Numbered from the stretch's first letter, positions 12,582 to 56,146 are shown. The stretch: 64,000 nt of DNA from Candidatus Dormiibacterota bacterium (GCA_963850385.1 CAWKKS010000001.1:335419-399418), one strand, 5' to 3'. Notes: generated by a model not told the origin, from the sequence alone. Numbers and translations: made by a program.

Positions 12582-13193
12582 ATGCATGGGGAGGGGGTGG
12601 TGAGTCGCCGTGCCGGCCAGGCGACCATCGAGTTCGCCTTTGCGGCGCCGCTGTTCTTCCTCTGCTTCTTTGCGGCCATCGACGCCGCGCTGTGGGCGAT
12701 CCAGTCGAGCGCAGCCGTGTCGGCTGCGGAGCAGGGAGCGCGGCTGGCTGCCGCGGCTGCAACCAGCCCGCTGAGCGAGGACACGCCATCGCCCGCGGTG
12801 CTGCTGGCGGCGGTGCGCGGGCAGCTGCAACAGGCGATGTTCGGCACCACCGTGGTGGCCTGGTGTGATCCCGCAGCAGGACAGTGCGTCACACCATCAG
12901 TGGCAGGTGGCGGAGGCCCGTTCGCCCGATGCCCGACCAGCCCCACAGCGGTCGAGGAGCGTTTCGGCGCCCGGACCATCGCGATCTGCGATGAGACCTC
13001 AGCGCCCGCGCCGCCATGCCCTCCGCCACCACAAGCCGCGACTCCACGGTGCGATGACCCGCCCACGGTCACGGTGCACGTGGTCGGCTTCATGGCATCA
13101 CTGGTGCCTCCGATCAGCGGATTCGGCTGGCACGCCGGGGAGATTCCCATCAACGTGGTGGCCACGACCCACTCCCTGAGGTTCGCGACGTGA
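12582..13193 (+). CDS. TadE-like pseudopilin/pilus-assembly protein
   Basis: N-terminal RRAGQATIEFAFAAPLFFLCFFAAIDAALW (TadE-like domain). The GTG at 12600 behind GGGGAGGGG is an alternative start. Confidence 0.75.
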   Translation: MHGEGVVSRRAGQATIEFAFAAPLFFLCFFAAIDAALWAIQSSAAVSAAEQGARLAAAAATSPLSEDTPSPAVLLAAVRGQLQQAMFGTTVVAWCDPAAGQCVTPSVAGGGGPFARCPTSPTAVEERFGARTIAICDETSAPAPPCPPPPQAATPRCDDPPTVTVHVVGFMASLVPPISGFGWHAGEIPINVVATTHSLRFAT

Positions 13194-13771
13194 CCACGCG
13201 GCGAGGTCGTCGGGGTGGACAGGCGATCCTCGAGACAGCCATCGTGATCCCCGTCCTGCTGGCGCTGGTCAGCGTCTTCCTTGGCCTGATGATCCAGGTC
13301 GAGGCTCAGCAGCAGATGGAGGCGGCGACCAAGCTCGCTGCGGAGTCGTTTTTCCAGGCCCCGCGGGAAGCGGTGGACGCCCCCGGCACCACCTGCTGCG
13401 CGGCCGGGACGGCGACGGGCCCGTCGCTGGACACCTCAGGCATGCCCAAGGGCTGCCGCTTCGCCGCGGAGACCTTCTACGGGACAATGAGCTTTCGCCG
13501 CTTTCTTGTCTTCGACGCCGAGAAGAATGCGGCCGCCAGCCCGCTCTGTCTGCGCCGTGGCGCGCCGCTGGGGCAGGCGCGGGGCTCACTGATCACCTGC
13601 GAGGTGGACCATCTCGACGCTGCGCTCAACCCACCGCGCGGCCTGTCCGTCGTCCGCTGTTCCGCCTCGGCGAGGCTGGACTTCTCGCAAACCCCACTGG
13701 CATGGGCGATCCCCTGGAACCCTACCGTCAGCGCGGTGGCAGAGACCGTGCCTCCGCCCTTCAGGCAATGA
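13190..13771 (+). CDS. TadE-like pseudopilin/pilus-assembly protein
   Basis: RRGGQAILETAIVIPVLLALVSVFLGLMIQV. 4-nt overlaps with both neighbouring genes. Confidence 0.7.
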   Translation: MTTRRGRRGGQAILETAIVIPVLLALVSVFLGLMIQVEAQQQMEAATKLAAESFFQAPREAVDAPGTTCCAAGTATGPSLDTSGMPKGCRFAAETFYGTMSFRRFLVFDAEKNAAASPLCLRRGAPLGQARGSLITCEVDHLDAALNPPRGLSVVRCSASARLDFSQTPLAWAIPWNPTVSAVAETVPPPFRQ

Positions 13772-14307
13772 GACGTCGGTCCCAGTGCGGGCAGATGATC
13801 ATGATGATGGCTCTCGCCTTCGCGCTCTTCCTTTTCGGCGTCGTCGTCCTGGTCGTCGACAGCGCCGACCTCTATGTCTGGTCGGCGCGCGTCCAAGCCG
13901 CGGCGCAGTCAGCGGCGCAGGCCGGGGCCAACTCGGTCGATCCGCAGTACCTCTACGGGACGGGCAGTCACCTAGTGGATCTCGGCAACAGTGCCGGGTT
14001 GATGGTGTTCGAGCGCGGCTGTGTGCAGATCGGCGACGAGTCCGCGCAGCTCACCAGCCCGACGGGCACAGCGCAGTCGGCTGACGACGCTCAGCCGAAG
14101 GGCAACGGGGTGCGGTGTGTCAGCGACGGCTGCGCCGTCTACGCCTCAGTGGAGAAGACTGTGCATCTGCCTCTGCCACTGTTCGGCGACAGCGTGGTGG
14201 TGCGCGGGACGTACTACGCGGCGCCCGTGGTGGGCGCTGCTGTTGCCACCGCCTCGCATTGCGTGCGCGGCGCCTGGCTCAGCGCGGACCCGGCGCAGAT
14301 CCCCTGA
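13768..14307 (+). CDS. TadG/TadE-G-like pilus-assembly protein
   Basis: The ATG at 13768 overlaps the upstream stop (ATGA). GQMIMMMALAFALFLFGVVVLVVDSADLYVWSARVQAAAQSAAQAGAN matches the Tad (TadE/G-like) N-terminal pattern. Confidence 0.65.
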   Translation: MRRRSQCGQMIMMMALAFALFLFGVVVLVVDSADLYVWSARVQAAAQSAAQAGANSVDPQYLYGTGSHLVDLGNSAGLMVFERGCVQIGDESAQLTSPTGTAQSADDAQPKGNGVRCVSDGCAVYASVEKTVHLPLPLFGDSVVVRGTYYAAPVVGAAVATASHCVRGAWLSADPAQIP

Positions 14308-19475: not shown

Positions 19476-21440
19476 TCAGGGTCGGACTCTGACGGCCTCG
19501 AGCGCGACGATCGCGCTGGGGTTGTCCAGCGAGGAGAGATCGCCGGGCTCGACGCCGAGATACACGGCTCGCACGATGCGGCGAAGCACCTTGGCGTTGC
19601 GCGTCTTGGGTAATTCGGCGATCGCGATCACAGCCTTCGGTCGGAGCGCCTTCCCCAGCTCGGCCGTGACGCGCGCCGCCAGCGCCTCGCGCAGAGCCGC
19701 GCTGTCGGAGACGCCGGCCTTCAACACCACGAAGCAGACCAGTGCCTCGCCCTTCAGCTCGTCCGGCACCCCGATGGCCGCCGCCTCCGTGACGTCCGGA
19801 TCTGCCACCAGCGCCAACTCGACCTCGGCGGGCCCGAGCCGCTTGCCGGCCAGCTTGATGGTGTCGTCGCTGCGGCCGCGGATGTACCACAGACCGTCGA
19901 CGCCGACCTCCGCCCAGTCGCCGTGTACCCAGATGTTGAGCCAGCGCGACCAGTAAGTCTCGAGGTATCGCTCGCGGTCTCGCCAGAAGCCGCGTGTCAT
20001 GCCCGGCCAGGGCGAGCGCACCACCAGCTCGCCCACCTCGTTGCGGACGCTGTTGCCGTCGTCGTCGAGCACGTCGGCGTCCATCCCCGGGCACGGGCCC
20101 GCGAATGAGCACGGGTTGAGCGGGGTCAGCATGTTGCCGGAGAGGATGCCGCCGCTCACCTCAGTTCCGCCGCTGTAGTTGATGATCGGACAGCGACCAC
20201 CCCCCACGTTGTCGAGGAACCACCGCCAGGGGTCGACGTTCCACGGCTCGCCGCTGGAGCCCAGGACTCGCAGGGACGAGAGGTCGTGCGCGCCGGGTGC
20301 GTCGGTCCCGTGCCGCATCAGGGCGCGCACCACGGTCGGTGCCACGCCCAGCACGCTCACCCTCTGCCGCTCCACCACAGACCAGAGCCGGTCCGGGCCA
20401 GGATGGTCGGGGACACCTTCGAAGATGACCAGGGTGCAGCCGATGGTGAGCGCTCCACAGATCGCCCACGGGCCCATCATCCAGCCGATGTCGGTGTACC
20501 AGAGCAGGCGGTCTCCCGGCCCGACGTCAAAGCAGTGCGCCATGTCCTGGGTCGCCTTGACCGGGAAGCCACCCTGCACATGGACTGTCCCCTTGGGTCG
20601 GCCGGTCGTCCCGCTCGTGTAGATGAGCATGAACGGATCGTCGGCGGCGGTGTCGTGGGTGACCGCACCCGATGGCTGCGCGATGGTCAGGTCGTCGTAC
20701 CAGATGTCCCGCCCTCGCCGCATCGCGGTGCCGAGCGTCCCCAGCCGTCGCACCACCACGATGTGTTCGATGGACGGTGTCTGCTCTGCAACCTCGTCGG
20801 CGACCGGTTTGCCGGGCACTGCGTTTCCGCGGCGGAGGAAACCGTCGGCGACGAACAGCACCTTGGCGTCACAGTCGCTGAGCCGGGCGACGATGGCACC
20901 GGCGCCGTACCCGCTGAACAGGGGCACGACGATGGCTCCCACCTTCGAGCAGGCCAGGAACACGGCGACGGTCTCAGGGATCATGGGCAGGCAGATGCCG
21001 ATGCAGTCACCGGGCACGACGCCGAGTTCACGCAAGCCGTTGGCGCAGCGAGCGGTCTCGGCGGCCAGCTCGAGGTAGCTCCAGGTCCGTTGGGCCCCGT
21101 CGTCAGCCTCCCACACGACGGCGTCCCGGCCCGGTTGCGCGAGCGCCCACCTGTCGACGGCATTGATGGCCAGGTTGAGCCGCCCCCCCGGCCACCACCG
21201 CGTGAAGGGGAGGCCCTCGCTGGTATCCCGCATCCGCGTCGGGCGCTGATGCCACCCGATGTCGATGTCGTCGATCGTCGCGGCCCAGAACCGTTCGGGG
21301 TCGCGTCGCGCCAGGTCGTTCAGTGACTCGAGGTCGGCGACGCCCAGCTTGGTCATGAAGGACCACAGCCGGCTGCGCTCAACCTGCTCGCGCGTCGGCG
21401 TCCATGCGAACGGGCCGGCGGGACCTGCTCCGTCACTCAC
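19476..21440 (-). CDS. AMP-dependent acyl-CoA synthetase (acetate/acetoacetate-CoA ligase family)
   Basis: Motifs YTSGTTGRPKG, GWMMGPW, YSGGTEV and DDTIKLAGKRLGPAEVE. The GTG at 21440 is preceded by AAGGTG. Confidence 0.85.
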   Translation of the reverse strand: MSDGAGPAGPFAWTPTREQVERSRLWSFMTKLGVADLESLNDLARRDPERFWAATIDDIDIGWHQRPTRMRDTSEGLPFTRWWPGGRLNLAINAVDRWALAQPGRDAVVWEADDGAQRTWSYLELAAETARCANGLRELGVVPGDCIGICLPMIPETVAVFLACSKVGAIVVPLFSGYGAGAIVARLSDCDAKVLFVADGFLRRGNAVPGKPVADEVAEQTPSIEHIVVVRRLGTLGTAMRRGRDIWYDDLTIAQPSGAVTHDTAADDPFMLIYTSGTTGRPKGTVHVQGGFPVKATQDMAHCFDVGPGDRLLWYTDIGWMMGPWAICGALTIGCTLVIFEGVPDHPGPDRLWSVVERQRVSVLGVAPTVVRALMRHGTDAPGAHDLSSLRVLGSSGEPWNVDPWRWFLDNVGGGRCPIINYSGGTEVSGGILSGNMLTPLNPCSFAGPCPGMDADVLDDDGNSVRNEVGELVVRSPWPGMTRGFWRDRERYLETYWSRWLNIWVHGDWAEVGVDGLWYIRGRSDDTIKLAGKRLGPAEVELALVADPDVTEAAAIGVPDELKGEALVCFVVLKAGVSDSAALREALAARVTAELGKALRPKAVIAIAELPKTRNAKVLRRIVRAVYLGVEPGDLSSLDNPSAIVALEAVRVRP

Positions 21441-21507
21441 GGTGCGCACCTTATGCCGAGCCGCAGGTGGTGCGCACGGCGCCGCAACCAGGCGGCCGGT
21501 TGCCCCG

Positions 21508-22206
21508 TCAGGCGGCCCAGGCGAGACAGTCCGTGGCGGCGACCCCGGCGGGCACCAGGTAGCCGCGCGGGAAGATGGAGCAGGGGTTGACGGGGATCCC
21601 GCCGCGGTCGACCTCGAAATGGAGGTGCGGACCGGTGCTGTTGCCGGTGCTCCCCACGTACCCGATCGGGTCCCCGGCGCGGACGACGTCACCGTCCGGC
21701 ACCGCGACCCCATCGAGGTGCCCGTACAGGTACACAACTCCACCGCTGGGCGCTGCCGACGGCACCAACAGGATGTGCACCCCGAAGCCGACCGTTGACT
21801 CGACCACCTGCACGGCACCGTCGACCGCCGCGTAGACCGGGGTGCCCCTTGCCGCCGCCATGTCGACGCCGGTGTGGAACCACCGGTACCCGGCGTGCGC
21901 AGCATCGGGAGGACATGAATACCCCGGCGGCGGTAACGGCTCCGAGGCGAAGTCGGTGCACCCGAAGCCCTGGCTCACCCGGAACTGCCCTGCGGCCAGC
22001 GGTTGCGCGGTGCCCATCACCAGACCTCCGGCCGCGTCGACCTGGTTGGTCGCACCGCCTGTGAACGGCACTAGGTGGCTCACCATGGAGACGATCACAA
22101 GCACCGGAAGCGCAACCACCACGGCACCTGCCCCGCAGCCACACGCGAGCACGCGACGCGCAGCGCGGGTACCGAGCACGCTCGCCGCCGCGGAGAACGG
22201 GATCAC
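21508..22206 (-). CDS. membrane-anchored M23 family metallopeptidase
   Basis: N-terminal TM helix, then FHTGVDMAA..GTPVYAAVDG and GSTGNSTGPHLHFEV (the HxxxD and HxH motifs). GTGA overlap with the upstream ATPase gene. Confidence 0.85.
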   Translation of the reverse strand: MIPFSAAASVLGTRAARRVLACGCGAGAVVVALPVLVIVSMVSHLVPFTGGATNQVDAAGGLVMGTAQPLAAGQFRVSQGFGCTDFASEPLPPPGYSCPPDAAHAGYRWFHTGVDMAAARGTPVYAAVDGAVQVVESTVGFGVHILLVPSAAPSGGVVYLYGHLDGVAVPDGDVVRAGDPIGYVGSTGNSTGPHLHFEVDRGGIPVNPCSIFPRGYLVPAGVAATDCLAWAA

Positions 22207-24839
22207 CCCACGTCCGCGATGGAGCCGACACGGCGCGCGCCAGCTCGTGTGTCCGCCAGGGCCATCAATGCCGGGCCCGGCACCACGCTGACCACCGCGC
22301 GCTCGGCGCCCGCCATCAGGACGCCCCGACCCGGGACGGACGGGCAGATCGCGGCCACCTCCTCGTCGCGCAGCTTGAACACCTCGGCAACCTCATCGAC
22401 CACGGCCTCCTCGGTGCCGAGGACGAGCTTGGTGGACGATGTCGCCGCCAGCGTCCGGCCGAGGTCGGTGCGCATGAAATCCTCGATGCGCTGGGACACC
22501 ATCCACACCCCGGCGCCGTGCTTGCGAGCCTGCCGCACCAACTGCCCGAGCACCTCGCCGGCGTCCGGGTCGGAGGTGACCCGATGGGCCTCATCGACGA
22601 CCACGATCATGCGGCGACGTCCGTGCCGCAGCGCGTCGAGGATGGCGGTCAGCAGAACCGCGAGAGCAGGCGTCAGGTCGGCACCGTAGGTCATCGCGAA
22701 GGTGCGCAGCCCGATCGCGACCGGCTGGTCGGTGACCGCGAACGTCGATTGCCTGTCGAACATGGCCGCGCGACGGCCCTGGGTGAACCTGAGCAATCGC
22801 GCCGTGATGACACGGCACCGCTCGCGCTCACGCGCGGTGAGGGCAGACACCATGGAATGGTCCTGAAGGTGCGTGACAAGGTCGCGCAGGAGGGGAGGGG
22901 GCCCGTGCCCCCGGCGCGCGCCGAGGAAGTCGATCAACTCACCGTGGAGCCACCCCTGGTCCTCGTCAGGGAGGCGGCGGATCGGCCGTCCGTCGCGCAT
23001 CCCGCGATCGTCTCCCGACATCAGCGACAGGATCGGCAGCACCATGCCGGCGCCGGTGTCCGGTGTGACACCGGCTGTGACACCGAGGGGATTGAGCGCC
23101 TCGACACCTAGCTCGAGGTAGCGGCCACCGACGGCTCGCATCACCGGCGCGTACTCGGAGTCCGGGTCGATGACCACGGCGCCCACTCGTTCCATCACGT
23201 GGCGCACCAGCAGCGTCTTGGCGGCGACCGATTTGCCCGAACCGGAGCTGCCCACGACCACGACGTTGTGGTTCGGCTGGCTCCATGCGGAGAAGTGCGC
23301 GGGGGTGCCGTTGAGGACGTTGAGCCCGACCAGTGGCGCCGTGATGTCGGCGAACGGCGTTCCCAGGCACGGCAGAAGCCGCTCCACCACCGAGTCGGAG
23401 GTGAGCACCAGGCTGCGGGCCAGCGGTGGGCAGCCGGGCGCCGCTGCAAGAGATGGGAGGAAACCTGGCCCATCCACCCCGGTCGCCTGGAACCCGTGCG
23501 CAAGCAGCACTGCGGCGAGACGCTCAGCGGCATCGAGAGCGCGTTGTCGCACCGGGTCGCCCAGTGAGATCGTCAGCGCGATACGGCAGGGGGTGATGTC
23601 GCGCTGGGCTAGCGCCGCGGCCACGTCGGCGGTGTCCTGCAGGGCCAGCTGGGCCTCGACGGGCTCGACGCCGGTTCGTGTGGCGTGTCGCAACATCGAT
23701 GAGCGCCGCCGAAGGTAACGCTGCGCAGACGAGGCGGCCACCGGCACAACGTGGAGGCTGACAATCCCAAAACAGTGGGCGCGTGTCATCGCGTCCACCA
23801 CCACACCGAGGTCGAGCGACGCAGGCAGACGTGTGGCGGTGAGCACCACGTGGTGCCGCTCGGCGATGTGCAGCGCGTTCACACCGGTCAGCGCGCGCGC
23901 CGCTGCCAGGGGAGTGTTGGCGAGCAGTGCGGCGACATCGTCACGGTCGGCCGCCCGCACATCGATGGCAAATCCCGGCGCCAGCCGCAGCGCCGACTGG
24001 AGCACATGTTCAGCCTCCGCGGCGCTCGCCGCCCGCGCACGTCCGGCACGCCACGGGGTTGCCAGGTGGGGCACGCCATCCGGGCCCGCGCTGAGGGGTG
24101 CGAGCACCACGTGGTGACGCAGGCCGAGAGTGGTCTGCGCAAGCCTGGCCGCAAGCGTGCGCTCGATGGCACGCAGAGGCGTGAGCGGCCAGCCGGCCAC
24201 CCGGCTGTCGAAGGCGTCGCCGACCCGCTCGGCGTCGTGGTGTGTCATCAGGGTGACCAGCTGCACTGGGCACTCGATGGCTTCCATCCAGCGCACCGCG
24301 GATCGACACCAATCGAGGTATGCGTCGCTGGAGATGCTGACCGGCGGACCTTCGAGCACCAGCACCGCGCGGTGCCCACCCGGGTCCAGCCTCACGATGC
24401 CGTCCCCCACGTCCGTCGGCACCGGTACAGACACCGCGACCCGCCAGCCACGCGGCTGCCACCGCCGCGGGCAGACGGCTGCGCGCTCGTCGCTCACGTG
24501 CACCGAACCGGCGACCTCGCGGACGCGTGCGCGGCGGGCCTGCCCGCGCGCGATCGTCGACGGGAGCAGACGCCACGCGTGCCGGTAGGCGAGGTGGGTG
24601 CCGATCCACACGCCCTCCCGCTCAGGCAGACCGAAGGACGCCGCCATCGCCAGGATGAAGCCGGCACTCGCAGGCCCCCACAGGCCGGGAAGGTGAACCG
24701 TGAGCAGGAGGTACGCGGCTGGGCTGACCACCGCTGCGATGGCAATCGCGCGCACCGGTAGCATGAGCGGGCCGACTGCGACGCGGAACTGGGCATCGAC
24801 GTTGAGCGGAACGCGAATCGCCGCGACCTGGCGCCTCAC
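22203..24839 (-). CDS. VirB4/TrsE-type T4SS ATPase with a fused N-terminal VirB3/PrgI-like membrane domain
   Basis: 878 aa. The N-terminal ~95 aa hold two TM helices. Walker A is VVVGSSGSGKS and Walker B is RMIVVVDEAH, followed by GAGVWMVSQR. GTGA overlaps at both ends. Confidence 0.8.
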   Translation of the reverse strand: MRRQVAAIRVPLNVDAQFRVAVGPLMLPVRAIAIAAVVSPAAYLLLTVHLPGLWGPASAGFILAMAASFGLPEREGVWIGTHLAYRHAWRLLPSTIARGQARRARVREVAGSVHVSDERAAVCPRRWQPRGWRVAVSVPVPTDVGDGIVRLDPGGHRAVLVLEGPPVSISSDAYLDWCRSAVRWMEAIECPVQLVTLMTHHDAERVGDAFDSRVAGWPLTPLRAIERTLAARLAQTTLGLRHHVVLAPLSAGPDGVPHLATPWRAGRARAASAAEAEHVLQSALRLAPGFAIDVRAADRDDVAALLANTPLAAARALTGVNALHIAERHHVVLTATRLPASLDLGVVVDAMTRAHCFGIVSLHVVPVAASSAQRYLRRRSSMLRHATRTGVEPVEAQLALQDTADVAAALAQRDITPCRIALTISLGDPVRQRALDAAERLAAVLLAHGFQATGVDGPGFLPSLAAAPGCPPLARSLVLTSDSVVERLLPCLGTPFADITAPLVGLNVLNGTPAHFSAWSQPNHNVVVVGSSGSGKSVAAKTLLVRHVMERVGAVVIDPDSEYAPVMRAVGGRYLELGVEALNPLGVTAGVTPDTGAGMVLPILSLMSGDDRGMRDGRPIRRLPDEDQGWLHGELIDFLGARRGHGPPPLLRDLVTHLQDHSMVSALTARERERCRVITARLLRFTQGRRAAMFDRQSTFAVTDQPVAIGLRTFAMTYGADLTPALAVLLTAILDALRHGRRRMIVVVDEAHRVTSDPDAGEVLGQLVRQARKHGAGVWMVSQRIEDFMRTDLGRTLAATSSTKLVLGTEEAVVDEVAEVFKLRDEEVAAICPSVPGRGVLMAGAERAVVSVVPGPALMALADTRAGARRVGSIADVG

Positions 24840-26476
24840 CGCAGCTGGGTCCGCGAGCGCAGGATCGGCGTGAGGTCGGGTGGCTGGTTGTGCAGGAGAC
24901 CAGCGAACATCGCCCCTGCCACGGCGTCCCCGACGTCCGGGTCACGGGCGATCAGGCTGGTGTACTCGGCGACGCGGCCCGGCGGTGGGGTGCCGCCGAG
25001 CTCGTTGTGGCGGGTGGCATCGAGCACCGCGCGACGTCCCTCGGCCCCGCTTGCGAAGCGCCCGACCGCCGCTCCCACTGCGCGGTTGAAGGCATGCTGT
25101 GCTGCCGGGTCCTCGAGCAGGCCGACGACCGCCGCGTGGTGACTGAAGTCGGCGATCGCGGCGGCATCGATGGCCGCATCGATCTCAGGACTTGCCCCGG
25201 TCATCGCCGCTGCATGCCCTGCCGCGGCCGCCGCCACCACGGCTCCGGTGTCACTTCCCGGGCGAGGCTGGTCGCCGGTGGAGACGCCATGCCGCGCCGG
25301 GCTGCTCAGGGTTTCAAGGAACCCACCGGGTCGCGGACGGAGCCCGCCGATCCGCATCAGCGCTGAGACGTCCCCGGCCGCATTCGGCAGCGCCATCACC
25401 CCCGTCGACAGTGCCGTGGCCGCCCCTGTGATTCCGCCATGGCTGAACGACCGCCAGGCCAGGCCATGAACCGCCTTGCCCGTCATCCAGATACCGCCGA
25501 GCACGCCGAGGCACGCGAGCAGGGTGCGGGTCAACCCCTCCGCGGCACCGGTCGTCGACAGGGCGCCCTGGTCGGCACCGAGGAAGAACATGGCGATGCC
25601 GGCCGTGAGCGACCCGCAGATTGCGAGGATGATCGGCAGCAACATGGCGGAGGTGAAGAGGTCCATCCACCACTGCACGAACCGGTTGCGGTGGTCGTAC
25701 ACCGCCAGCGCCACGAACAGTGGTGCAGACGCGACCGCGAACACCAGCTGGACGATTCGCAACAGGTACAGCGCCAGCACGTAGACGAACGCGATCGCCA
25801 CCAGCAGGATGGGGATCGCCACCAGGAAGTCGCCGACCCCGGCGAGGCCGAAGCCCACGGCCGCGATCCGGCCCACCACCCGGCCGAGGCCGCCGTTGGT
25901 GGCGAACGCCGACGCAACAGTCCTCGCGGCCGCCTCGGCGATCCTGCCGGAGGCGCTCGCGCTCAGTCTCATGGCGTTGAGGAGAAGCGACTGTCCGGGG
26001 GTGGGCGCCACAAGCAGACCGGCGACGATGACGGTCCGCATGATGTTGTCCGCCACCAGCTGGAGCGCGTCCGCGCGATGGTCGAACATGCCGCGCGCGA
26101 GACGTATCACGCAGCACGTCATGGCGATGAAGACACCGGAGACGGCGAAGCCGCTGTACAGCCGCGGCCAGGTGTCGGCCAGGGTCAGGTTGGACGGCTG
26201 CAGCTGATCGATGAGCTTGGGGCAGGAGTCCTGCAACCAATCTGCCTGGCATGCATTCCAACCGGGATCGCCGGCGTGCTGCGGGAGCGGCGACCCGAGT
26301 GTGTGGTGGTACAACCAGCGGAAGGGGTTCTGGAGCACCTCGCCGGCCTGCGAGATCGCATCGGCGGCGCCGCCCACCAGGTTGCACACGCCGTCGGGGA
26401 CGATGCCGAAAGGCCCGCACGACGACAGCAGGATCTCAAGATGCAGGCCGGTGGAGACTGGGAACGTCGACGTCAC
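24836..26476 (-). CDS. polytopic membrane protein, TrbL/VirB6-like, with a long Ala/Gly-rich C-terminal tail
   Basis: 546 aa. GTG start behind GAAGGGGG. Multiple TM helices. The core LLRIVQLVFAVASAPLFVALAVYDHRNRFVQWWMDLFTSAMLLPIIL resembles the 435-1406 protein. Confidence 0.6.
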   Translation of the reverse strand: MTSTFPVSTGLHLEILLSSCGPFGIVPDGVCNLVGGAADAISQAGEVLQNPFRWLYHHTLGSPLPQHAGDPGWNACQADWLQDSCPKLIDQLQPSNLTLADTWPRLYSGFAVSGVFIAMTCCVIRLARGMFDHRADALQLVADNIMRTVIVAGLLVAPTPGQSLLLNAMRLSASASGRIAEAAARTVASAFATNGGLGRVVGRIAAVGFGLAGVGDFLVAIPILLVAIAFVYVLALYLLRIVQLVFAVASAPLFVALAVYDHRNRFVQWWMDLFTSAMLLPIILAICGSLTAGIAMFFLGADQGALSTTGAAEGLTRTLLACLGVLGGIWMTGKAVHGLAWRSFSHGGITGAATALSTGVMALPNAAGDVSALMRIGGLRPRPGGFLETLSSPARHGVSTGDQPRPGSDTGAVVAAAAAGHAAAMTGASPEIDAAIDAAAIADFSHHAAVVGLLEDPAAQHAFNRAVGAAVGRFASGAEGRRAVLDATRHNELGGTPPPGRVAEYTSLIARDPDVGDAVAGAMFAGLLHNQPPDLTPILRSRTQLR

Positions 26477-26879
26477 ACTGCACCCCCTTCAGCGCTGCTC
26501 GCCACTCCACGCTACGGGGGACCGGCGGACGGCCCGAGGACAAGTGGTTCAGCGACCAACGTCGCGGGCGCTGTTCTGGTGACGGCGTTGCGGATGCCCG
26601 CGGGTCCGTCCGGCCAGGGCTGCGCTCGCCGGCGAACCGTGAGCCGGTGCCGACATACCGTTGTGCGGACCAATGCGGGCGCGCGGCTCGGCGTGACTGC
26701 AGTCGTACGGACGGAGCCGCAGCTCCCTGACGATCAGCTCTCCCATGGCGCAACGCTGCGAGGTCTGCGCAGACACCGCACGTACGTGGTGGTCCTCGGC
26801 CGCGCAACGTCTCGCCGCCGTCCGTCCGCGCCGATGACGGTTACCAGCTGTCGCGCAGGTGCAGCCAGGAGGTTCCCGA

Positions 26880-27146
26880 ATGATCATGCTCATCACCACC
26901 CTGACCACGCTGCTCGCCGACATCCAGGTCGACCCCAGCCACGACACGCTGCACGTCTGGGACACGGTGGCGAGCCCGCTGCTCACGGCAGCCGAGTACC
27001 TCATCCCGGCCGGCGTGGCCTTCTCCAGCCTGCACAGGGTGATGCAGCACCAGGAGTCCGGTTCGGGGTTCCTCGTCGACATGCTCGTCAAGGGAGGGGG
27101 CGCCGTGCTGGTCATCCAGCTGGTCAAGTCGTTTTTGCATGTCTGA
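26880..27146 (+). CDS. 88-aa small hydrophobic protein, candidate VirB2-like subunit
   Basis: The ATG at 26880 lies 7 nt after AGGAGG (26867-26872). Very high GC3. Two hydrophobic helices flank the polar loop HRVMQHQESGSG. The family call is by topology and context only. Confidence 0.5.
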   Translation: MIMLITTLTTLLADIQVDPSHDTLHVWDTVASPLLTAAEYLIPAGVAFSSLHRVMQHQESGSGFLVDMLVKGGGAVLVIQLVKSFLHV

Positions 27147-27158
27147 CGCCAGCGCGCG

Positions 27159-28373
27159 TCAGCTGTCTCCCTCGCGCAGGTCCTCCCCTCGGAAGTCGAG
27201 GTCGCGCAGCGCCGGTGCCCCGCCGCGCCTGGGCGCAGCCGCGCCGAACCGCTCGCGCAGCGCGTCCAGCGTCCTGTCGAGCCGCGTGTCACGTGGCGGG
27301 CCGTCGCCCTCGAACAGGTCGAGCTGAGCGGCGTCGACGACACCGCTCACCCCCATGCCGAGCAGCCGCACCGGTGCACCGGACCACGCCGCCTCGAAGA
27401 GCGCCGTCCCCGCCTGGGCCAGGGCGAGGTCGCCGTCCTGCGGGGTCGGGAAGGTGTGCTGGCGCGTGAACGTCGCGAAGTCCGAGTAGCGCAGCTTGAT
27501 GGTGGCGGTGCGTGCCGCCCAGTGTCCGTGGCGCAGCTGCCTGCCGACGTCGCCGGCGCAGCCGCGCAGGAGACGGTGCAGCTGCGCGCGGTCGCTGATG
27601 TCCTCGCTGAACGTCTCCTCGCGCGAGATGCTCTTCGGTCGATCGGGGACGGTCACCTCGCTGCGGTCGATTCCCCGGGCGCGCTCGCTGAGGCTGAGTG
27701 CGGCGTGCTCGCCGAGGCGCCGGCGCAGTGCATCCAGCGGGAACGCGGCAAGGTCGCCCAGGGTCACCAGTCCGAGGCTGAGCAGCGCCTTCTCTGAGGC
27801 GGGTCCCAGCCCGGGGAGGCGGCGCAGCGGCAGGGGCGCGAGGAACGCGGCCTCGTCGCCGGGCGGCACCACGACCATCCCGCGCGGCTTCTCCAGGTCC
27901 GACGCCACCTTGGCCACCAGCTTCGACGTCGCCACCCCGCACGAGGCGTCCAGCCGGCAGTGCTCACGGATGCTGTCGCACAGCTCGCGCGCCATCTGGT
28001 CGGGCGGACCGAGGGCGCGGATCGAGCCGGTGACGTCGAGGTAGGCCTCGTCGAGCGACACCGGCTCCATCTGGGGGGTGAGCTGGCGAGCCAGCGCGAA
28101 GACTGCGCGTGACGCTTCGCGATAGGCGGTGAAGTCGACCGGGAGCACCACCGCGTGTGGGCACAGCCGCAGCGCGCGCCCGAGCGGCATCGCCGAGTGC
28201 ACCCCGAACCGTCGCGCCTCGTACGACGCGGCGCTGACCACGCCGCGACGGTAGTGGTCGCCCCCGCCGCCGACGATGATCGCCTTGCCGCGCAGCTCAG
28301 GCCGGCGCAATTGCTCGACCGAGGCGTAGAAGGCGTCGAGGTCGACGTGGATGATGGCGCGCGGCCAGTTCAC
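27159..28373 (-). CDS. dinB: DNA polymerase IV (Y-family)
   Basis: IIHVDLDAFYASVEQ, SYEARRFGVHSAMP and SLDEAYLDV. GTG start at 28373. 405 codons. Confidence 0.9.
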   Translation of the reverse strand: MNWPRAIIHVDLDAFYASVEQLRRPELRGKAIIVGGGGDHYRRGVVSAASYEARRFGVHSAMPLGRALRLCPHAVVLPVDFTAYREASRAVFALARQLTPQMEPVSLDEAYLDVTGSIRALGPPDQMARELCDSIREHCRLDASCGVATSKLVAKVASDLEKPRGMVVVPPGDEAAFLAPLPLRRLPGLGPASEKALLSLGLVTLGDLAAFPLDALRRRLGEHAALSLSERARGIDRSEVTVPDRPKSISREETFSEDISDRAQLHRLLRGCAGDVGRQLRHGHWAARTATIKLRYSDFATFTRQHTFPTPQDGDLALAQAGTALFEAAWSGAPVRLLGMGVSGVVDAAQLDLFEGDGPPRDTRLDRTLDALRERFGAAAPRRGGAPALRDLDFRGEDLREGDS

Positions 28374-30793: not shown

Positions 30794-31348
30794 TCAGGCG
30801 CAACTCCATTGATGGGCCTGCCCGTGGGCGAGCATCTTGGCCGTGATGTTCGCCTGGTCGGCGGCGTCGTAGATGTTGGTGCCGCCGTTGTGGGTGAAGG
30901 TGGACATCAGGAACTGGAAGAGGCCGATGTAGGGCCCGCTGGGGTTGTACGCAGTGGTGCGCAGCCCCGATTCGCATCGTGCGATGCTGACCATCCAGGC
31001 GCCGGAGACACCCCACCGGGCTGCGGCGGCCTCGATGATGCCGATCACGCTGTTGGGGTTCGCCGGGGGGCCGGCATAGGCCGGCGCGAAGGCGACGCGC
31101 GAGGCTCGCCGGGGCGCCGACGTGGCCGGCGCTGCCTTCGGGGCTGAGCTCGGTGCTGGGGTGGCCGCGGTGACGGCATCGACCAGGTCGGGCTTGGCGA
31201 CGGTGAACGCAGTCACGTAGACGTGGTCGTGGCTGGGATGGCTCGCCACCGGCGAGGCCGCCGAGACCACGGTCAGAGCGACGATCGGGCTGAGGACGAG
31301 GGTGGCCATGCCCAGGACCACCCCTCGGGAACGCTTGGGCAACCGCAA
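30794..31348 (-). CDS. secreted lytic transglycosylase-like cell-wall hydrolase
   Basis: TTG start 6 nt after AGGAGA gives the signal peptide (M)RLPKRSRGVVLGMATLVLSPIVALTVVSAASPVA. C-terminal SIARCESGLRTTAYNPSGPYIGLFQF has the catalytic E-S and GLFQ motifs. Confidence 0.7.
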   Translation of the reverse strand: MRLPKRSRGVVLGMATLVLSPIVALTVVSAASPVASHPSHDHVYVTAFTVAKPDLVDAVTAATPAPSSAPKAAPATSAPRRASRVAFAPAYAGPPANPNSVIGIIEAAAARWGVSGAWMVSIARCESGLRTTAYNPSGPYIGLFQFLMSTFTHNGGTNIYDAADQANITAKMLAHGQAHQWSCA

Positions 31349-44327: not shown

Positions 44328-45017
44328 CTAGGTGACCAGCGACTCGCGCACACCCTCGATGTCGAGCCGGCGCGAGTACACGATCAGCTCGTCGCTCGCC
44401 TGGATGACCTCGTCGGGGCGGGCCACCACCGGCTCACCGGCCCGGACGATGCACACGACCAGGTCCCCCGCGGGGAGATCGACCTCGCTGAGGCGACGGC
44501 CCACCAGCCGGGACATGTCGGGCAGCCTCACGTCGACCAGGTTGGCACCTGATGCCTTCACGGCCAGCCCTCTGACCATCTCGGAGCCGCTGATCTCCGC
44601 CTCGATCAAGCCCATCAGCAACTCGGTCGCGCTCACCGGGACGTCGATGCCCAGCGCCGTGAACACGTTGACGTTCACCGGGTTGTTGACCCGCGCGATG
44701 GTTCGGGGCACACCGAACTTCCCCTTGGCAACCTGGCAGGCGATCAGGTTGTCCTCGTCATCTCCAGTGCATGCGATCACCACCCCGGCGCGCTCAATGC
44801 CGGTCGTGGCCAGGAACGCCATCTCGTCGCCATCCCCGACCATCACGGCGACGGTCCCCATCTGGTGCTCGATCCACTCAGCGCGCGCCGGGTCCTTCTC
44901 AACCAGGGTGACCTCATAGTCACGCTCGATGAGGTGACGGGCGAGGTAGAAGCCCACCTTGCCCCCCCCGATGACCAGGACATAGGGGCGCTCGCGCGCC
45001 GGCGGGGCCTCGCTCAC
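44328..45017 (-). CDS. trkA: Trk/Ktr-type K+ uptake regulatory protein (RCK_N + RCK_C)
   Basis: VLVIGGGKVGFYLARHL, ARVNNP and the C-terminal TrkA_C pattern (LVGRRLSEVDLPAGDLVVCIVR). The GTG at 45017 overlaps the stop of the upstream frame (GTGA). Confidence 0.8.
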   Translation of the reverse strand: MSEAPPARERPYVLVIGGGKVGFYLARHLIERDYEVTLVEKDPARAEWIEHQMGTVAVMVGDGDEMAFLATTGIERAGVVIACTGDDEDNLIACQVAKGKFGVPRTIARVNNPVNVNVFTALGIDVPVSATELLMGLIEAEISGSEMVRGLAVKASGANLVDVRLPDMSRLVGRRLSEVDLPAGDLVVCIVRAGEPVVARPDEVIQASDELIVYSRRLDIEGVRESLVT

Positions 45018-45467
45018 CGCTGCGCCTGGGCCACGTCGGCGCTGCGCTGTGGGTAGGCCGGGTTCTCGCCGGTGGTGAGAAAGCGGTTGATCATCGAGCT
45101 CGACGATGGTGGTGGAGCAGATCGTCTCCATCCCGAACTCCCGGTAGGTCTGCTCGCGGATCGGGTCGTAGATCCGGGTGATGACCCGTGGCACGTTGAA
45201 GACAACCTTGGCCACTTGCGCGGCCATGATGTTGCGGTTGTCGCCGTTGGTCACCGAGGCGAAGCAGTCCGCCTGCTCGATGCCGGCGCGGCGGAGCACG
45301 GACTCGTCAATCCCGGTGCCCACCACCATGTTCCCGCCGAAGTTCTCGCCGAGACGGTTGAAGGCTGAGACGCGCTCATCGACGATGCTCACCTCGTGCC
45401 CTGCGGCATCGAGGTCGCGCGCCAGCGACGAACCGACGCGCCCGCAACCGACGATGACGACCTTCAC
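45014..45467 (-). pseudogene. trkA: TrkA-N (RCK_N) protein, with a 1-nt frame break near 45095
   Basis: MKVVIVGCGRVGSSLA...RIYDPIREQTYREFGMETICSTTIVEL, then the conserved continuation MINRFLTTGENP... in the +1 frame, ending at 45014. In the uncorrected frame the ORF instead reads through into the next gene as one 379-aa ORF. Confidence 0.6.
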
Positions 45468-45559
45468 CTTTCCCTCCAGTCCACTCCCAGCCGCATTCTA
45501 CGTGGCAGGGGTGTCGCGACTGGCCGGGCGTCATCCCGGCGGGGTAGCATCCAGCCGCC

Positions 45560-45997
45560 ATGGTGGGATTCACGCCGCAACGCATCCTCGTGCCGATCAG
45601 CGGCGCGCAGACCGATGGCGAGGCCGTCCGCCTCGGCTGCCGCCTTGCCCGGCGCGGCAAGGCCAAGGTCATGGTGGTGACGGTTCTCGAGATCCGGCGC
45701 AGCCTGGCGCTTGGCACCGTCCAGGATGCCGAGATGGACGCGGCGGAGAAGATCCTCGACGCCGCCGAGCGGGTCGCCCGCGAGCTGGAGACGGAGATCG
45801 AGACGGAGTTGCTCCAGGCTCGAGACGCGGGCCCGGCGATCGTCGAGGAGATCGCCCACTGGAAGGCCGACCTGGTGGTGGTCGGCATGCCGTTCCGCCT
45901 GCGTTTCGGCGAGTTCCACATGGGCCGGACGGCGCCCTACATCCTCCGACACGCGGCCTGCCGGGCGATGCTCTTCCGAGAGCCACCCCCCGGCTGA
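45560..45997 (+). CDS. universal stress protein (UspA family)
   Basis: RILVPISG..., IVEEIAHWKADLVVVGM and GRTAPYILRHAACRAMLF. Confidence 0.85.
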   Translation: MVGFTPQRILVPISGAQTDGEAVRLGCRLARRGKAKVMVVTVLEIRRSLALGTVQDAEMDAAEKILDAAERVARELETEIETELLQARDAGPAIVEEIAHWKADLVVVGMPFRLRFGEFHMGRTAPYILRHAACRAMLFREPPPG

Positions 45998-46008
45998 GGA
46001 GCGAGCTG

Positions 46009-48468
46009 CTACGCGTCGAGCGAGCCTGCTGCTCCGACACCGGCGATTGAAGCCACCCGGTCGTCGTCGTCCATTCGCATGATGATCACGCCGCGAGTCT
46101 GCCGTCCGGACACACGCACCTGGTCGAGGGGGAGGCGGATCACCTGTCCCGACGTGCTGATCACCATCAGCTCCTCGGAGAGGTCCTCGACGACGCGCAT
46201 CCCCACGATCTCGCCGATCTTGGGGATCGCAGTCTGATCGACGGTGTACACGCCCTGGATGTTGCGGCTCTTCACCGGGTAATCCGACATCGGGGTGAGC
46301 TTGCCGAAGCCGTTCTGCGTCACCACCAGCACGTGGCCCTGCGGGTTGACGATGTCGAATCCGGCGATCTCGTCGCCGGCTCGCAGCCGCATCGCCCCGA
46401 CACCCATGGTGTCCCGACCCATCGGGCGCACCTCCTTCTCGGTGAAGCGCGACCCCTTGCCGCGGCGCGTGACGATGAGCAGCTGGTCACCGCCCGAGGA
46501 ACGCCGCACCCAGTTGAGCTCGTCATCGCCCTGGAGGTTGATGGCGATGAGCCCGTTGCGCCGCACCGCTGAATAGGCGGCCGCCGGTGTCTTCTTGATC
46601 TGCCCGAGCTTGGTCACCATCACCAGGTACTGGGAGTCGCTGAACTCCTCCATTTCGATGAGCGCGGTCACCTTCTCCCCCTGGTCGAGGTCGATCAGGT
46701 TGATGACGGGCAGGCCTTTGGCCTGGCGCTTGACGTCGGGGATCTCGTGGGTGCGCAGCCGGTAGACGCGGCCCCGGTTGGTGAAGAACAGCATGTCGGT
46801 GTGCGTGTTCGCGGTCGTCGAGTGGGCGATGTAGTCCTCGTCGTTGGAGCGGCGCGCCCCGACCACGCCCTTGCCCCCGCGGTGCTGGGCTCGGTACTGG
46901 TCGAGGGGGATGCGTTTGATGTAGCCGCGGTTGGTGAGCGTGACGAACACCTGCTCGCGCGGGATCAGGTCCTCCTCGTTGAGCTCCACCTCGCCCAGGT
47001 TGATCTGGGTGCGACGCGGGTCGGCGTACTTCTTGCGGATGCCACCGATCTCCTCCTTGATGATCCCGTCGACGAGGCGTGGGTTGCCGAGCACGTCCTC
47101 GAGGTGGGCGATCTCCTTGATCAGCTCCTCGTACTCCTCGCGGATCTTCCCCGCCTCGAGGCGGGTGAGCCGACCGAGGCGCAGGTCGACGATCGCCTTG
47201 GATTGCCGCTCGCTGAGCTCGAACCGCTCCTCGAGTCCACGCTGCGCGGTGCGTTCGTCCTGCGCGGCGCGGATGATCGCGATCACCTCGTCGAGGTGGT
47301 CCAGGCACCGCATCAGGCCTTCGAGGATGTGCGCGCGGTCGCGTGCCTTGGCCAGCAGGAAACGGGTGCGGCGCGTCACCACCACCCGCCGGAAGTCGAT
47401 GAAGTGCTGAAGCATCGCCTTCAGGCCGAGCACCTGGGGACGCCCGTCGACCAGCGCCAGCATGATGGCCCCGAAGGTCAGCTGCAGCTGCGTGTGCTTG
47501 AACAGGTTGTTGAGCACTGTGTGGGGGCGCGCGCTGGACTTGAGCTTGATGACGATGCGTGTCTCGTCATTGCGGTCCGACTCGTCGTTGAGCCCCTCGA
47601 TCCCCTCGAGCTTGTGGTCCTTGACGAGCTCGGCGATGGTGGTGAGCAGGCGGGCCTTGTTCACCTGGTAGGGCAGCTCGCGGACGATGATCTGCTCCTT
47701 GCCGTCCGAGGCCTCCTCGAAATCCACCTGCGCACGCATCACGATGCGGCCGTGGCCGGTGCCGTAGACGATCGGCAGGTCGCGCGCGTAGATCATCCCC
47801 CCGGTGGGGAAGTCGGGTCCCTTGATGATCCTGGTGAGGTCCTCGGTGGTCGTCTGCGGTTCGTCGATGAGGCGGGTGACTCCGTCGCAGACCTCACCGA
47901 GGTTGTGCGGAGGGATGTTGGTGGCCATCCCGACAGCGATGCCGGTGGCGCCGTTGACGAGCAGGTTGGGCACCAGCGCCGGCATCACGGTGGGCTCGAG
48001 GATGTCCGGGTCGGCGAGGTAGGTCTGGGCCATGTCGACAGTGTCCTTGTCGATGTCCTCGACCAGGGTCATCGCGATCGGCGACATCTTCGCCTCGGTG
48101 TAGCGCTCGGCGGCGGGTGGGTCACCGTCGACCGACCCGAAGTTTCCCTGTGAGGTCACCAGCGGGTAGCGCATCACCCAGTCCTGGGCAAGGCGCACCA
48201 TCGCGTCGTAGATGGCGGCGTTGCCGTGCGGGTGATAGTTCTTCATCACCTCGCCGACGATGGCCGCCGACTTCTTGGTGCGACCGGCGGCGGTGATGCC
48301 CTCCTGGAGCATCGCGTACATGATCCGGCGCTGCACGGGCTTGAGGCCGTCGCGCACGTCTGGAAGGGCGCGACTGATGATCACGCTCATCGCGTAATCC
48401 ATGTACGACGAGCGCATCTCCTGCTCGAGGTCGATCTCCCGGATCTGGCCCGGCTCGAACACGCTCAT
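46009..48468 (-). CDS. gyrA: DNA gyrase subunit A
   Basis: [42 protein letters not shown] and C-terminal beta-pinwheel repeats. Confidence 0.95.
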
Positions 48469-49520
48469 CGCGCCGCAGCCTGCTCAGGGTGGGGCAACCC
48501 GGCCGCAGCCTGCTGTCCCAGCTCGGCGGCGATGGTGCCGCTCACGTCGCGCTGCGATGCCTCGGTGGCAACCCGGATGGCATTCATGATGGCCAGTGCG
48601 TCGGAGCGGCCGTGCGCGATGACCACCTCGCCGGCGACGCCAAGCAGCAGCGCGCCGCCCGTGTGGCGGTAGTCGACGCCGTCGCGGAGTGCCCGCAGCC
48701 GGGGTTTGAGCAGCTGACCGCCGAGCTTGCCGCCGAGGCTGCCCATGGCCGCCTCGCGCAGGGCCGCGAACAGGTATTCGCCAACGCCCTCCGCGGTCTT
48801 GAGGGCGATGTTGCCGACGAACCCGTCGCAGACCGCCACGTCACACGCCCCGGTGAACAATTCCTTGCTCTCGATGTTTCCAGTGAAACCGGCAGTCGAC
48901 GTCTGCAACAGCGGGAACGCCTCCTGGACCAGCTGTGAGCCCTTGCCGGCCTCCTCGCCGTTGCTGAGCAGCCCGATCCGCGGCGAGGCGACACCCATCA
49001 TCCGGCGCGCATACACCGAGCCCATCAACGCGAACTGCACAAGCCATTCAGGCCGGCAGTCGGTGTTGGCGCCGACGTCGAGCAGGAACGTCCGGGCACC
49101 GGACGAGGGCAGCAGCGCACCGATTGCCGGGCGTGCGACGCCGGCGATGCGCTTCACGGTGAACAACGCAGCCGCGAGCACCGCGCCGCTGTTCCCGGCG
49201 CTCACCGCCGCCGCTGCGGTGCCCTGCGCGACCAGGTCGCAGGTCCGCACCACCGACGAGTTGCGCTTGGAGCGCACAGCATGCGCGGGGTGCTCGTCCA
49301 TCTCCACCACCTCGCGGGCGTCGATGATGCCCACCCGGGCCCGGGAGACGCTCTCCGGGCCTTCGATCCGCGCCAGCTCGGTCTCGAGCAGCTCGCGCCG
49401 GCCGACCAGCAGAACCGGGATCTGCAGCTCGGTGGCAGCACGCAGCGCACCGCGCACGATCTCGGCCGGTGCATGGTCACCACCCATGGCGTCGACCGCG
49501 ACCGGACGGACGCTGGGCAT
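48465..49520 (-). CDS. plsX: phosphate acyltransferase
   Basis: VAVDAMGGDHAPAEIVRGA and GNIALKTAEG. ATGA overlap with gyrA and 1-nt TGATG overlap with gyrB. Confidence 0.9.
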   Translation of the reverse strand: MPSVRPVAVDAMGGDHAPAEIVRGALRAATELQIPVLLVGRRELLETELARIEGPESVSRARVGIIDAREVVEMDEHPAHAVRSKRNSSVVRTCDLVAQGTAAAAVSAGNSGAVLAAALFTVKRIAGVARPAIGALLPSSGARTFLLDVGANTDCRPEWLVQFALMGSVYARRMMGVASPRIGLLSNGEEAGKGSQLVQEAFPLLQTSTAGFTGNIESKELFTGACDVAVCDGFVGNIALKTAEGVGEYLFAALREAAMGSLGGKLGGQLLKPRLRALRDGVDYRHTGGALLLGVAGEVVIAHGRSDALAIMNAIRVATEASQRDVSGTIAAELGQQAAAGLPHPEQAAAR

Positions 49521-54489: not shown

Positions 54490-54515
54490 GGGATGCGCCC
54501 CTGGCCGACTCGCCA

Positions 54516-54521
54516 TAGAAT
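54516..54521 (+). promoter_or_regulatory. -10 box of a probable leaderless transcript (HNH gene)
   Basis: TAGAAT followed by 6 nt and then the ATG at 54528. Confidence 0.35.
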
Positions 54522-54527
54522 CCCGCC

Positions 54528-55046: not shown

Positions 55047-55161
55047 CGGCGACGGGGACCCACGTCCCCCGGCGGCCCGCCCCACGCGTGTCTGGCCCGC
55101 GAGGGCGCCCCGGCACTGACGGGTCAGCCGTGGGGTTCGGTCACGGCCGTTGCGGTGACCG

Positions 55162-55167
55162 TAGAAT
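55162..55167 (+). promoter_or_regulatory. -10 box of a probable leaderless transcript (ku)
   Basis: TAGAAT followed by 6 nt and then the ATG at 55174. Confidence 0.35.
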
Positions 55168-55173
55168 CGACAC

Positions 55174-56040: not shown

Positions 56041-56146
56041 GGGGGCGGTGAGCCCCCGCGCCCAGGCGCCGGGTGATCGGCGACCGTCACTCGCTGCGCA
56101 GCCGGGTCTTCCGTTTGCGATGCCTGCGGCGGGTCTCCCCGGTCGC

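Follow-up and report, generated by a model that had tools for sequence, protein, structure and literature searches.

A probably maintained and vertically inherited type IV secretion core, without relaxase or coupling protein at its locus, in the soil phylum Dormibacterota

We analyzed a stretch of 64,000 nucleotides, hereafter the window (GCA_963850385.1, CAWKKS010000001.1:335419-399418), whose host is an Aeolococcales-like Candidatus Dormibacterota bacterium, and more particularly a block of genes located at 21508-27146. Our data indicate that this block is probably the core of a type IV secretion system (T4SS) which derives from the channel of an integrative and conjugative element (ICE) of the monoderm, MPF-FATA-like type, and which is vertically inherited and maintained by selection while being devoid, locally, of both relaxase and coupling protein. 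It is closer to the domesticated T4SSs of Patescibacteria and archaea than to a dead mobile element. The block and its two flanking genes are organized as follows (aa, amino acids; ORF, open reading frame):

19476-21449: acetyl-CoA-synthetase-like gene (acs), flank, identified with Pfam
21508-22206, minus strand: M23 peptidase, 232 aa, membrane-anchored, a LytM-type peptidoglycan endopeptidase
22203-24839, minus strand: VirB4-family T4SS ATPase, 878 aa, with an N-terminal hydrophobic segment
24836-26476, minus strand: VirB6/TrbL-like polytopic membrane protein (assigned with moderate confidence), 546 aa, with a soluble helical domain at its C-terminus
26477-26879, no strand: divergent control region of 403 bp between the 88-aa gene and the operon
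26549-26746, minus strand: small ORF of 65 aa (MGELIVRELRLRPYD...), in the same direction as the VirB6-like gene
26880-27146, plus strand: 88-aa membrane protein with two conserved helices preceded by a hydrophobic leader of variable sequence
27159-28373: DinB gene, flank, identified with Pfam

The M23, ATPase and VirB6-like ORFs are chained by two 4-bp start/stop overlaps, and an AGGAGG sequence lies 7 nt 5' of the ATG of the 88-aa ORF. The gene coordinates, the GTGA-type 4-bp overlaps, the protein motifs, this AGGAGG Shine-Dalgarno sequence and the acs and dinB flanks had all been described in a first-pass annotation made without database searches, and all were confirmed.

The assignment of the ATPase to the VirB4 family is firm. 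Its Walker A (GSSGSGKS) and Walker B (VVVDEAH) motifs do not vary among 12 orthologues with identities as low as 38%, and many residues of its N-terminal part are equally invariant. The protein matches the NCBIfam models TraC (TraC-F) at 4.9e-30 and VirB4_CagE (TIGR00929) at 6.8e-23 over residues 348-845, it passes the gathering thresholds of the Pfam models AAA_10 and P-loop_TraG, and the best solved relative of its orthologue profile in the PDB is 4AG5 (2.7e-24), the C-terminal domain of VirB4 from Thermoanaerobacter (Firmicutes). In the window as in more than 40 loci, the gene is translationally coupled to those of the VirB6-like protein and of the cell-wall hydrolase. The ATPase represents a divergent VirB4 lineage; a HMMER search of 1.84 billion representative sequences showed a sharp drop after about 20 full-length members of this family. 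A conserved hydrophobic segment is present at residues 20-38 and, according to its topology, could occupy the place of the separate VirB3 of other systems.

The M23 assignment is also firm. Residues 110-208 match Pfam Peptidase_M23 at 1.8e-26 (92.6 bits for a cut-off of 28.7), the zinc ligands are found in HTGVD (HxxxD) and HLH (HxH, in GPHLHFEV), and a single N-terminal hydrophobic helix spans residues 28-46. Our confidence in the VirB6 assignment is moderate. The Pfam TrbL model gives 0.012 for the window protein and 4.9e-4 for its orthologue in locus L030, both below gathering, and NCBIfam models of Mycoplasma ICE transmembrane proteins give 1.4e-5 and 2e-4. Precomputed PF04610 matches exist in five orthologues, and one orthologue is named VirB6-like by JGI. 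When the AlphaFold2 model of the protein (mean pLDDT 72.5) was submitted to Foldseek, the matches of highest probability were with R388 TrwI/VirB6 (probability 0.84, TM-score 0.41; probability 0.60, TM-score 0.44), with non-significant E-values of 0.67-2.2, and all unrelated matches had a probability of 0.16 or less. The corresponding profile found nothing among PDB sequences. The earlier description of these three genes as a monoderm-type T4SS core is thus borne out, firmly for VirB4 and M23 and moderately for VirB6.

Homologues of the ATPase (866-883 aa, 50-77% identical) come, where a name is given, from Candidatus Dormibacteraeota or Dormibacteria; the ATPase of the window itself is encoded on a contig of 1.87 Mb. 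Scanning one genome per GTDB species yielded 58 loci, nearly all of them in metagenome-assembled genomes (MAGs) of Dormibacterota and including two closed chromosomes (OY970307.1 and OY970355.1). We compared the window proteins with these loci, clustered the locus genes and built a neighbour-joining tree of VirB4, and four groups could be distinguished: clade A (14 species, VirB4 69-76% identical to that of the window), clade B (about 30 species, 51-55%), a small clade consisting of L011, L013, L014 and L017 (55-58%) and a basal clade C (44-45%). Clade A, whose members include Aeolococcus gillhamiae, Amunia macphersoniae and a Dormibacter sp., displays the same gene order as the window over more than 20 kb, namely HAD, an 89-aa protein, dinB, the divergent small gene, VirB6, VirB4, M23, acs and a protease, and the more divergent locus L015 has the downstream half of this arrangement. 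In clade B, the small gene, VirB6, VirB4 and M23 form one co-directional operon located at a different but equally conserved site, downstream of HxlR, YceI, DsbA-like, MFS and Usp genes. The small clade displays an altered gene order, which in L014 reads small protein, VirB4, hydrolase, a 278-aa protein, a 70-aa protein and VirB6-like, and the guanine-plus-cytosine (GC) content of L013, L014 and L017 is about 50%. M23 is replaced in this clade by a hydrolase with SLT and CHAP domains or with SLT only; the wall-hydrolase module has therefore been swapped. Finally, clade C is present twice in each of two MAGs from peat and in a mobile-element context, with an IS110 transposase, a single-stranded DNA-binding protein (SSB), a ParB-like protein, an ArdC-like antirestriction protein, a large DEAD helicase and DUF6079 as neighbours.

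Within clade A, the ratios of nonsynonymous to synonymous substitution rates (dN/dS, NG86 method) were 0.17 for VirB4, 0.23 for the VirB6-like protein, 0.30 for M23 and 0.11 for the 88-aa protein, the lowest value in the block, as compared with 0.20 for DinB, 0.14 for Acs and 0.35 for HAD in the flanks. dS amounted to 0.7-1.0 and was comparable in block and flanks. Pairwise dN of VirB4 correlated with that of Acs and DinB (rho 0.63-0.66, for 0.76 between flanks), so that the divergence of the block has gone hand in hand with that of its neighbours. The GC content is about 70% across the whole window, without any compositional step between block and flanks. VirB4 is uninterrupted and full-length in 46 of the 54 loci that are not cut by contig ends; the eight broken copies all come from a single project of long-read MAGs, in which inspection of adjacent genes (L044, L058) showed these to be broken as well.

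The first-pass annotation had hesitated between a decayed ICE and a domesticated minimal channel. That the block would be a decaying stump, i.e. non-functional leftovers awaiting deletion, could account for a core deprived of its DNA-processing genes, for close relatives in which the block is missing or scarred (see below) and for the related copies found in mobile contexts. However, the four ORFs are intact in nearly all species under a constraint similar to that of the housekeeping flanks, the catalytic motifs are invariant, the translational coupling is preserved, and the same four-gene set is kept in two clades whose VirB4 proteins are only about 52% identical. The synteny over at least 14 species, the intact ORFs, the flank-like dN/dS values (0.11-0.30, and thus well below the value of 1 chosen beforehand as a mark of constraint) and a divergence that tracks that of the flanks show that the block is not such a stump, an explanation which we regard as largely refuted and very improbable. 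The domesticated channel is a better description.

The 88-aa protein is the most constrained component of the block. Its 39 homologues are 60-99% identical, with a variable leader, for which cleavage is predicted after LLA|D, and strongly conserved residues 22-88, and in clade B its gene is co-directional with that of VirB6 and directly upstream of it. An AlphaFold2 model (pLDDT 77) displays helices at residues 2-17, 26-55 and 61-85. Neither Pfam nor NCBIfam returned anything at E<=1, Foldseek found no match in the PDB at E<1 with a method that resolves helical hairpins poorly, and the orthologue profile only gave a chance match among PDB sequences. A leader followed by two hydrophobic helices, a mature part of about 70 aa and a location beside virB6 and virB4 constitute an architecture that is not restricted to pilins. 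By its position, its architecture and a dN/dS lower than that of any other gene of the block, the protein is a candidate pilin or conduit subunit.

The gap that separates this gene from the operon is 403 bp long and divergent, as previously described, but it is not empty since it contains the conserved 65-aa ORF. In 12 loci of group A, this position harbours an open frame of 60-65 aa. The family is characterized by a conserved N-terminus (TELIVRELRLR), a variable middle, a basic C-terminal RHSRRR motif in most copies and a conserved stop codon, and has no Pfam match. Alignment of 11 orthologous regions revealed GTCCG/CGGAC-type blocks conserved on both sides of the ORF, weaker in the window itself, which may be operator sites. 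Scanning the control region detected neither a sigma-70-like promoter nor an intrinsic terminator, as expected at 70% GC. No GAAC-N4-GTTC site (LexA box) was found near the operon or dinB, the number of such sites being at chance level, though the LexA motif of the host phylum may differ.

Several observations weigh against a maintained T4SS core. First, the ATPase does score against VirB4 profiles, as the T4SS reading demanded, but far below the curated NCBIfam cut-offs (104 bits versus 567 for TraC, 81 versus 643 for VirB4_CagE), and no VirB8-like component was found. Second, the 88-aa protein has no detectable similarity to VirB2, TrbC, T4SS_pilin or solved pilins, and hhalign found nothing between it and the N-terminus of the VirB6-like family, unlike the CedA1/CedA pair. 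Because the fold, sequence and hhalign searches all failed to give a match, the label "VirB2-like" that this protein had received stays unproven, and is founded on architecture and position. Third, a DinB-anchored search of metagenome contigs retrieved four close Dormibacterota contigs and the block is present in two of them. In L063 (DinB 88% identical), a spacer of 102 bp is all that separates dinB from acs, the block being missing. In L065, near a contig end, the dinB stop codon is immediately followed by the last 42 or so codons of M23 (TGPHLHFEV...LAWAM and stop); this junction is a deletion scar. The block is thus dispensable. Patchy presence with degraded orthologues had been named beforehand as a sign of an ordinary ICE, and these contigs display it in part; in this small sample, the pattern is one of occasional loss of an otherwise conserved unit and not of general decay.

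The mobile relatives of the block point to its origin. The nearest is L108 (P0052; 467-kb contig, 66% GC, VirB4 39% identical), in which a small protein, a VirB6-like protein, VirB4, a CHAP hydrolase and a coupling protein follow each other. The small protein (97 aa) has the same layout as the 88-aa protein, with a leader, a helix, an HQE-loop and a second helix, the VirB6-like protein (544 aa) matches that of the window at 4e-18 in BLASTP, the coupling protein contains T4SS-DNA_transf and TraG-D_C, and a TrwC-family relaxase is encoded within 8 kb. L108 is a complete conjugative version of the same core and, in agreement with the earlier statement that such a core normally travels with a relaxase and a coupling protein, it possesses both. 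A more remote relative (L109, 27%) is an ordinary actinobacterial-type ICE containing a TrbL_3/4 protein adjoining T4SS_pilin, VirB4, a coupling protein, Replic_Relax and an integrase, and the same canonical conjugation set is carried by the Embleya plasmid NZ_CP108778.1. The plasmid collection contained no close relative, the best matches being Embleya and Streptomyces plasmids with 29-30% identity over the ATPase domain only. Taken together with the structural relative 4AG5, L108, L109 and the Embleya plasmid show that the block derives from a monoderm-type conjugation channel whose DNA-processing genes are absent at the locus.

This absence was examined over the whole window. Pfam revealed no relaxase, coupling protein, integrase or replication gene in the 64 kb, outside of six unscanned genes at 44328-51358 that include gyrA, gyrB, trkA and plsX, recognized by eye only. 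No tRNA gene exists in the window, and a search for direct repeats on either side of the block yielded nothing but short imperfect pairs within coding sequence. In the 14 clade A loci, no coupling-protein homologue was found within 10 kb on either side, relaxases not having been searched there. The claim that the system lacks relaxase and coupling protein therefore stands for the scanned genes of the 64 kb but does not extend beyond them, since the sister clade keeps a coupling protein.

In clade B, the M23 gene is followed by eight co-directional genes, mostly with 4-bp overlaps (13440-20363 in L024), which form a Tad-like cluster. It encodes a T2SSE-family ATPase, for which NCBIfam ranks "TadA family conjugal transfer-associated ATPase" first (1.2e-40) and VirB11 second (8e-39), as well as weak CpaE/Ssd-like and T2SSF-like proteins. 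A homologue of the L108 protein F40 comes after this cluster in 23 loci. Thereafter, 13 clade B loci, each from a different species, encode an intact coupling protein of the VirD4/TraG type (485-515 aa) at 8.5 kb from virB4; it is found for example on the minus strand at 20969-22516 in L022 and at 21052-22509 in L044, with Pfam T4SS-DNA_transf at 3.6e-46 and 3e-51, plus TraG-D_C and TrwB_AAD_bind. As the sister clade keeps such a gene 8.5 kb away from the core, a coupling protein may exist elsewhere in the genome of the window. We also noticed that five loci of clade B type with full Dormibacterota synteny (L019, L022, L053, L054 and L057) are titled Acidiferrales, Saccharimonadales, Acidimicrobiia or Chloroflexi; these foreign titles likely reflect mislabelled or contaminated bins rather than cross-phylum transfer.

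One would wonder whether the block could be a functional channel for conjugation, with its coupling protein, relaxase and oriT located elsewhere on the chromosome, in other words a dispersed ICE-derived or Hfr-like system for DNA export. This is the main open alternative. It could explain why the core adjoins a coupling protein and a TrwC relaxase in L108 and why clade B has an intact coupling protein at some distance, and the coupling-protein gene is also far from virB4 in Patescibacteria and many other systems (PMC12102498). On the other hand, neither the 64 kb nor the surveyed surroundings of the 14 syntenic relatives contain such a gene, the window is free of integrase and att repeats, those clade B flanks that were examined showed no relaxase, and the chromosomal location of the block has not changed over a divergence in which dS rose to about 1. 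We consider this explanation improbable.

How does the Dormibacterota block, which we regard as a maintained core, compare with known systems? It had been stated that no domesticated bacterial version had been described. This is wrong, because Patescibacteria possess a phylum-wide chromosomal, relaxase-less T4SS derived from MPF-FATA (Quinonero-Coronel et al. 2025, PMC12102498). It is the closest known kind. The two are alike in being chromosomal and mostly vertically inherited with no relaxase nearby, in combining VirB4, a VirB6-like protein and small pilin- or VirB3-like membrane proteins with a cell-wall peptidase near virB4, and in encoding the coupling protein, if any, away from virB4. 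Their hosts also belong to sister lineages, Patescibacteria (Candidate Phyla Radiation, CPR) being sister to Chloroflexota and Dormibacterota (PMC12102498). They differ in several respects. The Dormibacterota host has a free-living lifestyle and a genome size close to 3 Mb (3.2-3.3 Mb for the two closed chromosomes), and its set comprises only 4-5 genes and is dispensable in some relatives. Its VirB4 has its own N-terminal hydrophobic anchor, whereas VirB3-VirB4 fusions have not been found in CPR, no TrsD homologue was seen, and its small protein matches no VirB2/T4SS_pilin profile. Moreover, it has a coupled M23 hydrolase and displays visible intermediates between mobile and fixed forms. A full-text search of one literature library linked Dormibacterota with VirB4 or T4SS only through a passing phylogenetic mention in PMC12102498.

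The conjugative T4SSs of MPF-FATA type from monoderm bacteria, to which ICEBs1, pCF10 and pIP501 belong, provide a second term of comparison. With L108 and the Embleya plasmid NZ_CP108778.1 as representatives, they share with the block the order small membrane protein, VirB6-like, VirB4 and wall hydrolase. In contrast, the window locus has no coupling protein, relaxase or integrase, its hydrolase is an M23 and not a CHAP, SLT or NlpC/P60 protein, and it occupies a fixed chromosomal site with the composition of the host genome. The ComB system of Helicobacter pylori, an older case of domestication, is a chromosomal competence T4SS devoted to DNA uptake without relaxase or coupling protein. It is, however, of the diderm MPF-T type (VirB2-4 and VirB6-10) and bears no close sequence relation to the Dormibacterota block.

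A parallel can also be drawn with the archaeal Ced and Ted systems of DNA import (Beltran et al. 2023, PMC9905601), which in Sulfolobales are partnered with type IV (Ups) pili (PMC9905601, PMC11868833). Both sides combine a domesticated chromosomal VirB4-like ATPase, a VirB6-like channel and a small two-helix protein without relaxase, and the location of the clade B core beside a Tad-like (type-IV-filament) cluster recalls the Ups and Ced partnership. The window ATPase is nevertheless no Ced or Ted member by sequence, its NCBIfam scores being 7.2e-4 for CedB (18 bits versus 700) and 2.9e-4 for CedD. The Dormibacterota system further differs by a bacterial peptidoglycan envelope with a dedicated hydrolase and by the coupling protein of its sister clade, so that the likeness resides in the parts list only.

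By analogy with these systems, we propose that the membrane-anchored M23 endopeptidase would locally open the peptidoglycan and that the VirB6-like protein would serve as membrane platform or pore. VirB4, anchored by its own N-terminal hydrophobic segment in replacement of VirB3, would power assembly and could extract the 88-aa two-helix protein from the membrane, and this protein would in turn assemble into a short conduit or pilus. Regulation of the unit might depend on the 65-aa ORF and on the divergent control region, and the channel may receive its substrate from a coupling protein encoded elsewhere, as could be the case in clade B. The ancestral channel would have belonged to an integrative or plasmid element before being inherited vertically under purifying selection.

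Concerning the substrate, DNA, through chromosomal exchange or uptake, is somewhat favoured, because the sister clade retains a coupling protein and a conjugation-associated Tad-like ATPase. An alternative would be a channel for protein secretion or contact-dependent interaction, such as adhesion, killing or an epibiont-like exchange of the kind proposed for Saccharibacteria, rather than for DNA. The relaxase-less T4SSs of Patescibacteria are indeed thought to be non-conjugative (PMC12102498). The clade B core, for its part, abuts a Tad-like pilus cluster. It is also established that coupling proteins recruit protein effectors as well. Against this idea, the conserved neighbourhoods contain no candidate effector or immunity genes, and Dormibacterota are generally regarded as free-living; we hold such a role to be possible, if unlikely.

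A bolder hypothesis would be that the system is the Dormibacterota counterpart of archaeal Ups and Ced. A Tad-like pilus would join cells and the channel would move or import chromosomal DNA without relaxase, for repair or exchange, with the help of M23 and, in some clades, of the coupling protein. The same lineage would then also show the route followed by the T4SS of Patescibacteria, the ICE core having been captured before, or independently of, the epibiotic lifestyle. In our opinion, this extended scenario is quite unlikely.

Domesticated conjugation channels are few: Ced/Ted in hyperthermophilic archaea, ComB in Helicobacter and the system of Patescibacteria. Dormibacterota are free-living bacteria of cold, dry, nutrient-poor soils, and in this uncultured phylum the domestication can be traced stepwise, from mobile forms with a coupling protein and TrwC, through a chromosomal clade with a coupling protein and a Tad-like cluster, to the clade of the window, with 4-5 genes at a fixed site among housekeeping genes. 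This should make it possible to test which minimal gene set is kept by selection once mobility is lost and whether the chromosomal T4SS of Patescibacteria predates their epibiotic lifestyle. Members of the 88-aa family are also candidates for the pilin or conduit subunit of a T4SS of monoderm type, conjugative pili being stated to be absent in monoderm bacteria (Beltran et al., PMC9905601).

Beyond the acs and dinB flanks are found HAD, NUDIX, SLT-like, acyl-CoA dehydrogenase, AIM24, glycine-cleavage P-protein and further housekeeping genes, and a Pfam scan of concatenated proteins identified hut genes, an EF-G-like protein, LigD, Ku, PHO4, QueG and PepA. The window is rich in DNA-damage-tolerance genes. 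In addition to dinB, which adjoins the block, a non-homologous end-joining cluster is located at 51754-57118 on the plus strand and comprises LigD (911 aa, with phosphoesterase, ligase and primase-polymerase domains), an HNH endonuclease, Ku and a second ligase-like ORF. Two genes resemble cell-wall lytic transglycosylases, both on the minus strand: one at 30794-31321 (SLT/transglycosylase-like), which is syntenic in clade A, and one at 59811-60572, with two LysM domains and an SLT domain.

Three TadE/TadG-like pseudopilin genes lie on the plus strand about 7 kb from the block (12597-13193, 13190-13771 and 13795-14307). One of them has a Pfam TadE match (7.7e-10) and the other two are alike by their N-terminal motif only; the 64 kb contain no gene for a Tad ATPase or platform. 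The trio is syntenic in clade A and missing from L063, which is also devoid of the block. This co-absence was considered as a possible functional link and set aside, because it concerns a single genome from which an unrelated protease gene is missing too.

Finally, a second T4SS-like module is found about 20 kb from the block, on the plus strand at 218-457, 435/459-1406 and 1458-1859. It encodes a 79-aa two-helix protein, a 315-aa polytopic protein of the TrbL_3/TrbL_4 family (VirB6-like) and an SSB. The 315-aa protein matches PF19597 with 27.4 bits for a gathering threshold of 27 and aligns with the 546-aa VirB6-like protein at E=0.002 in BLASTP, and BLASTP detected no similarity between the 79-aa and 88-aa proteins. 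The trio is also present on other, short contigs, where the upstream genes are unrelated, and this module may represent an additional fragment of the same captured element or of a different one.

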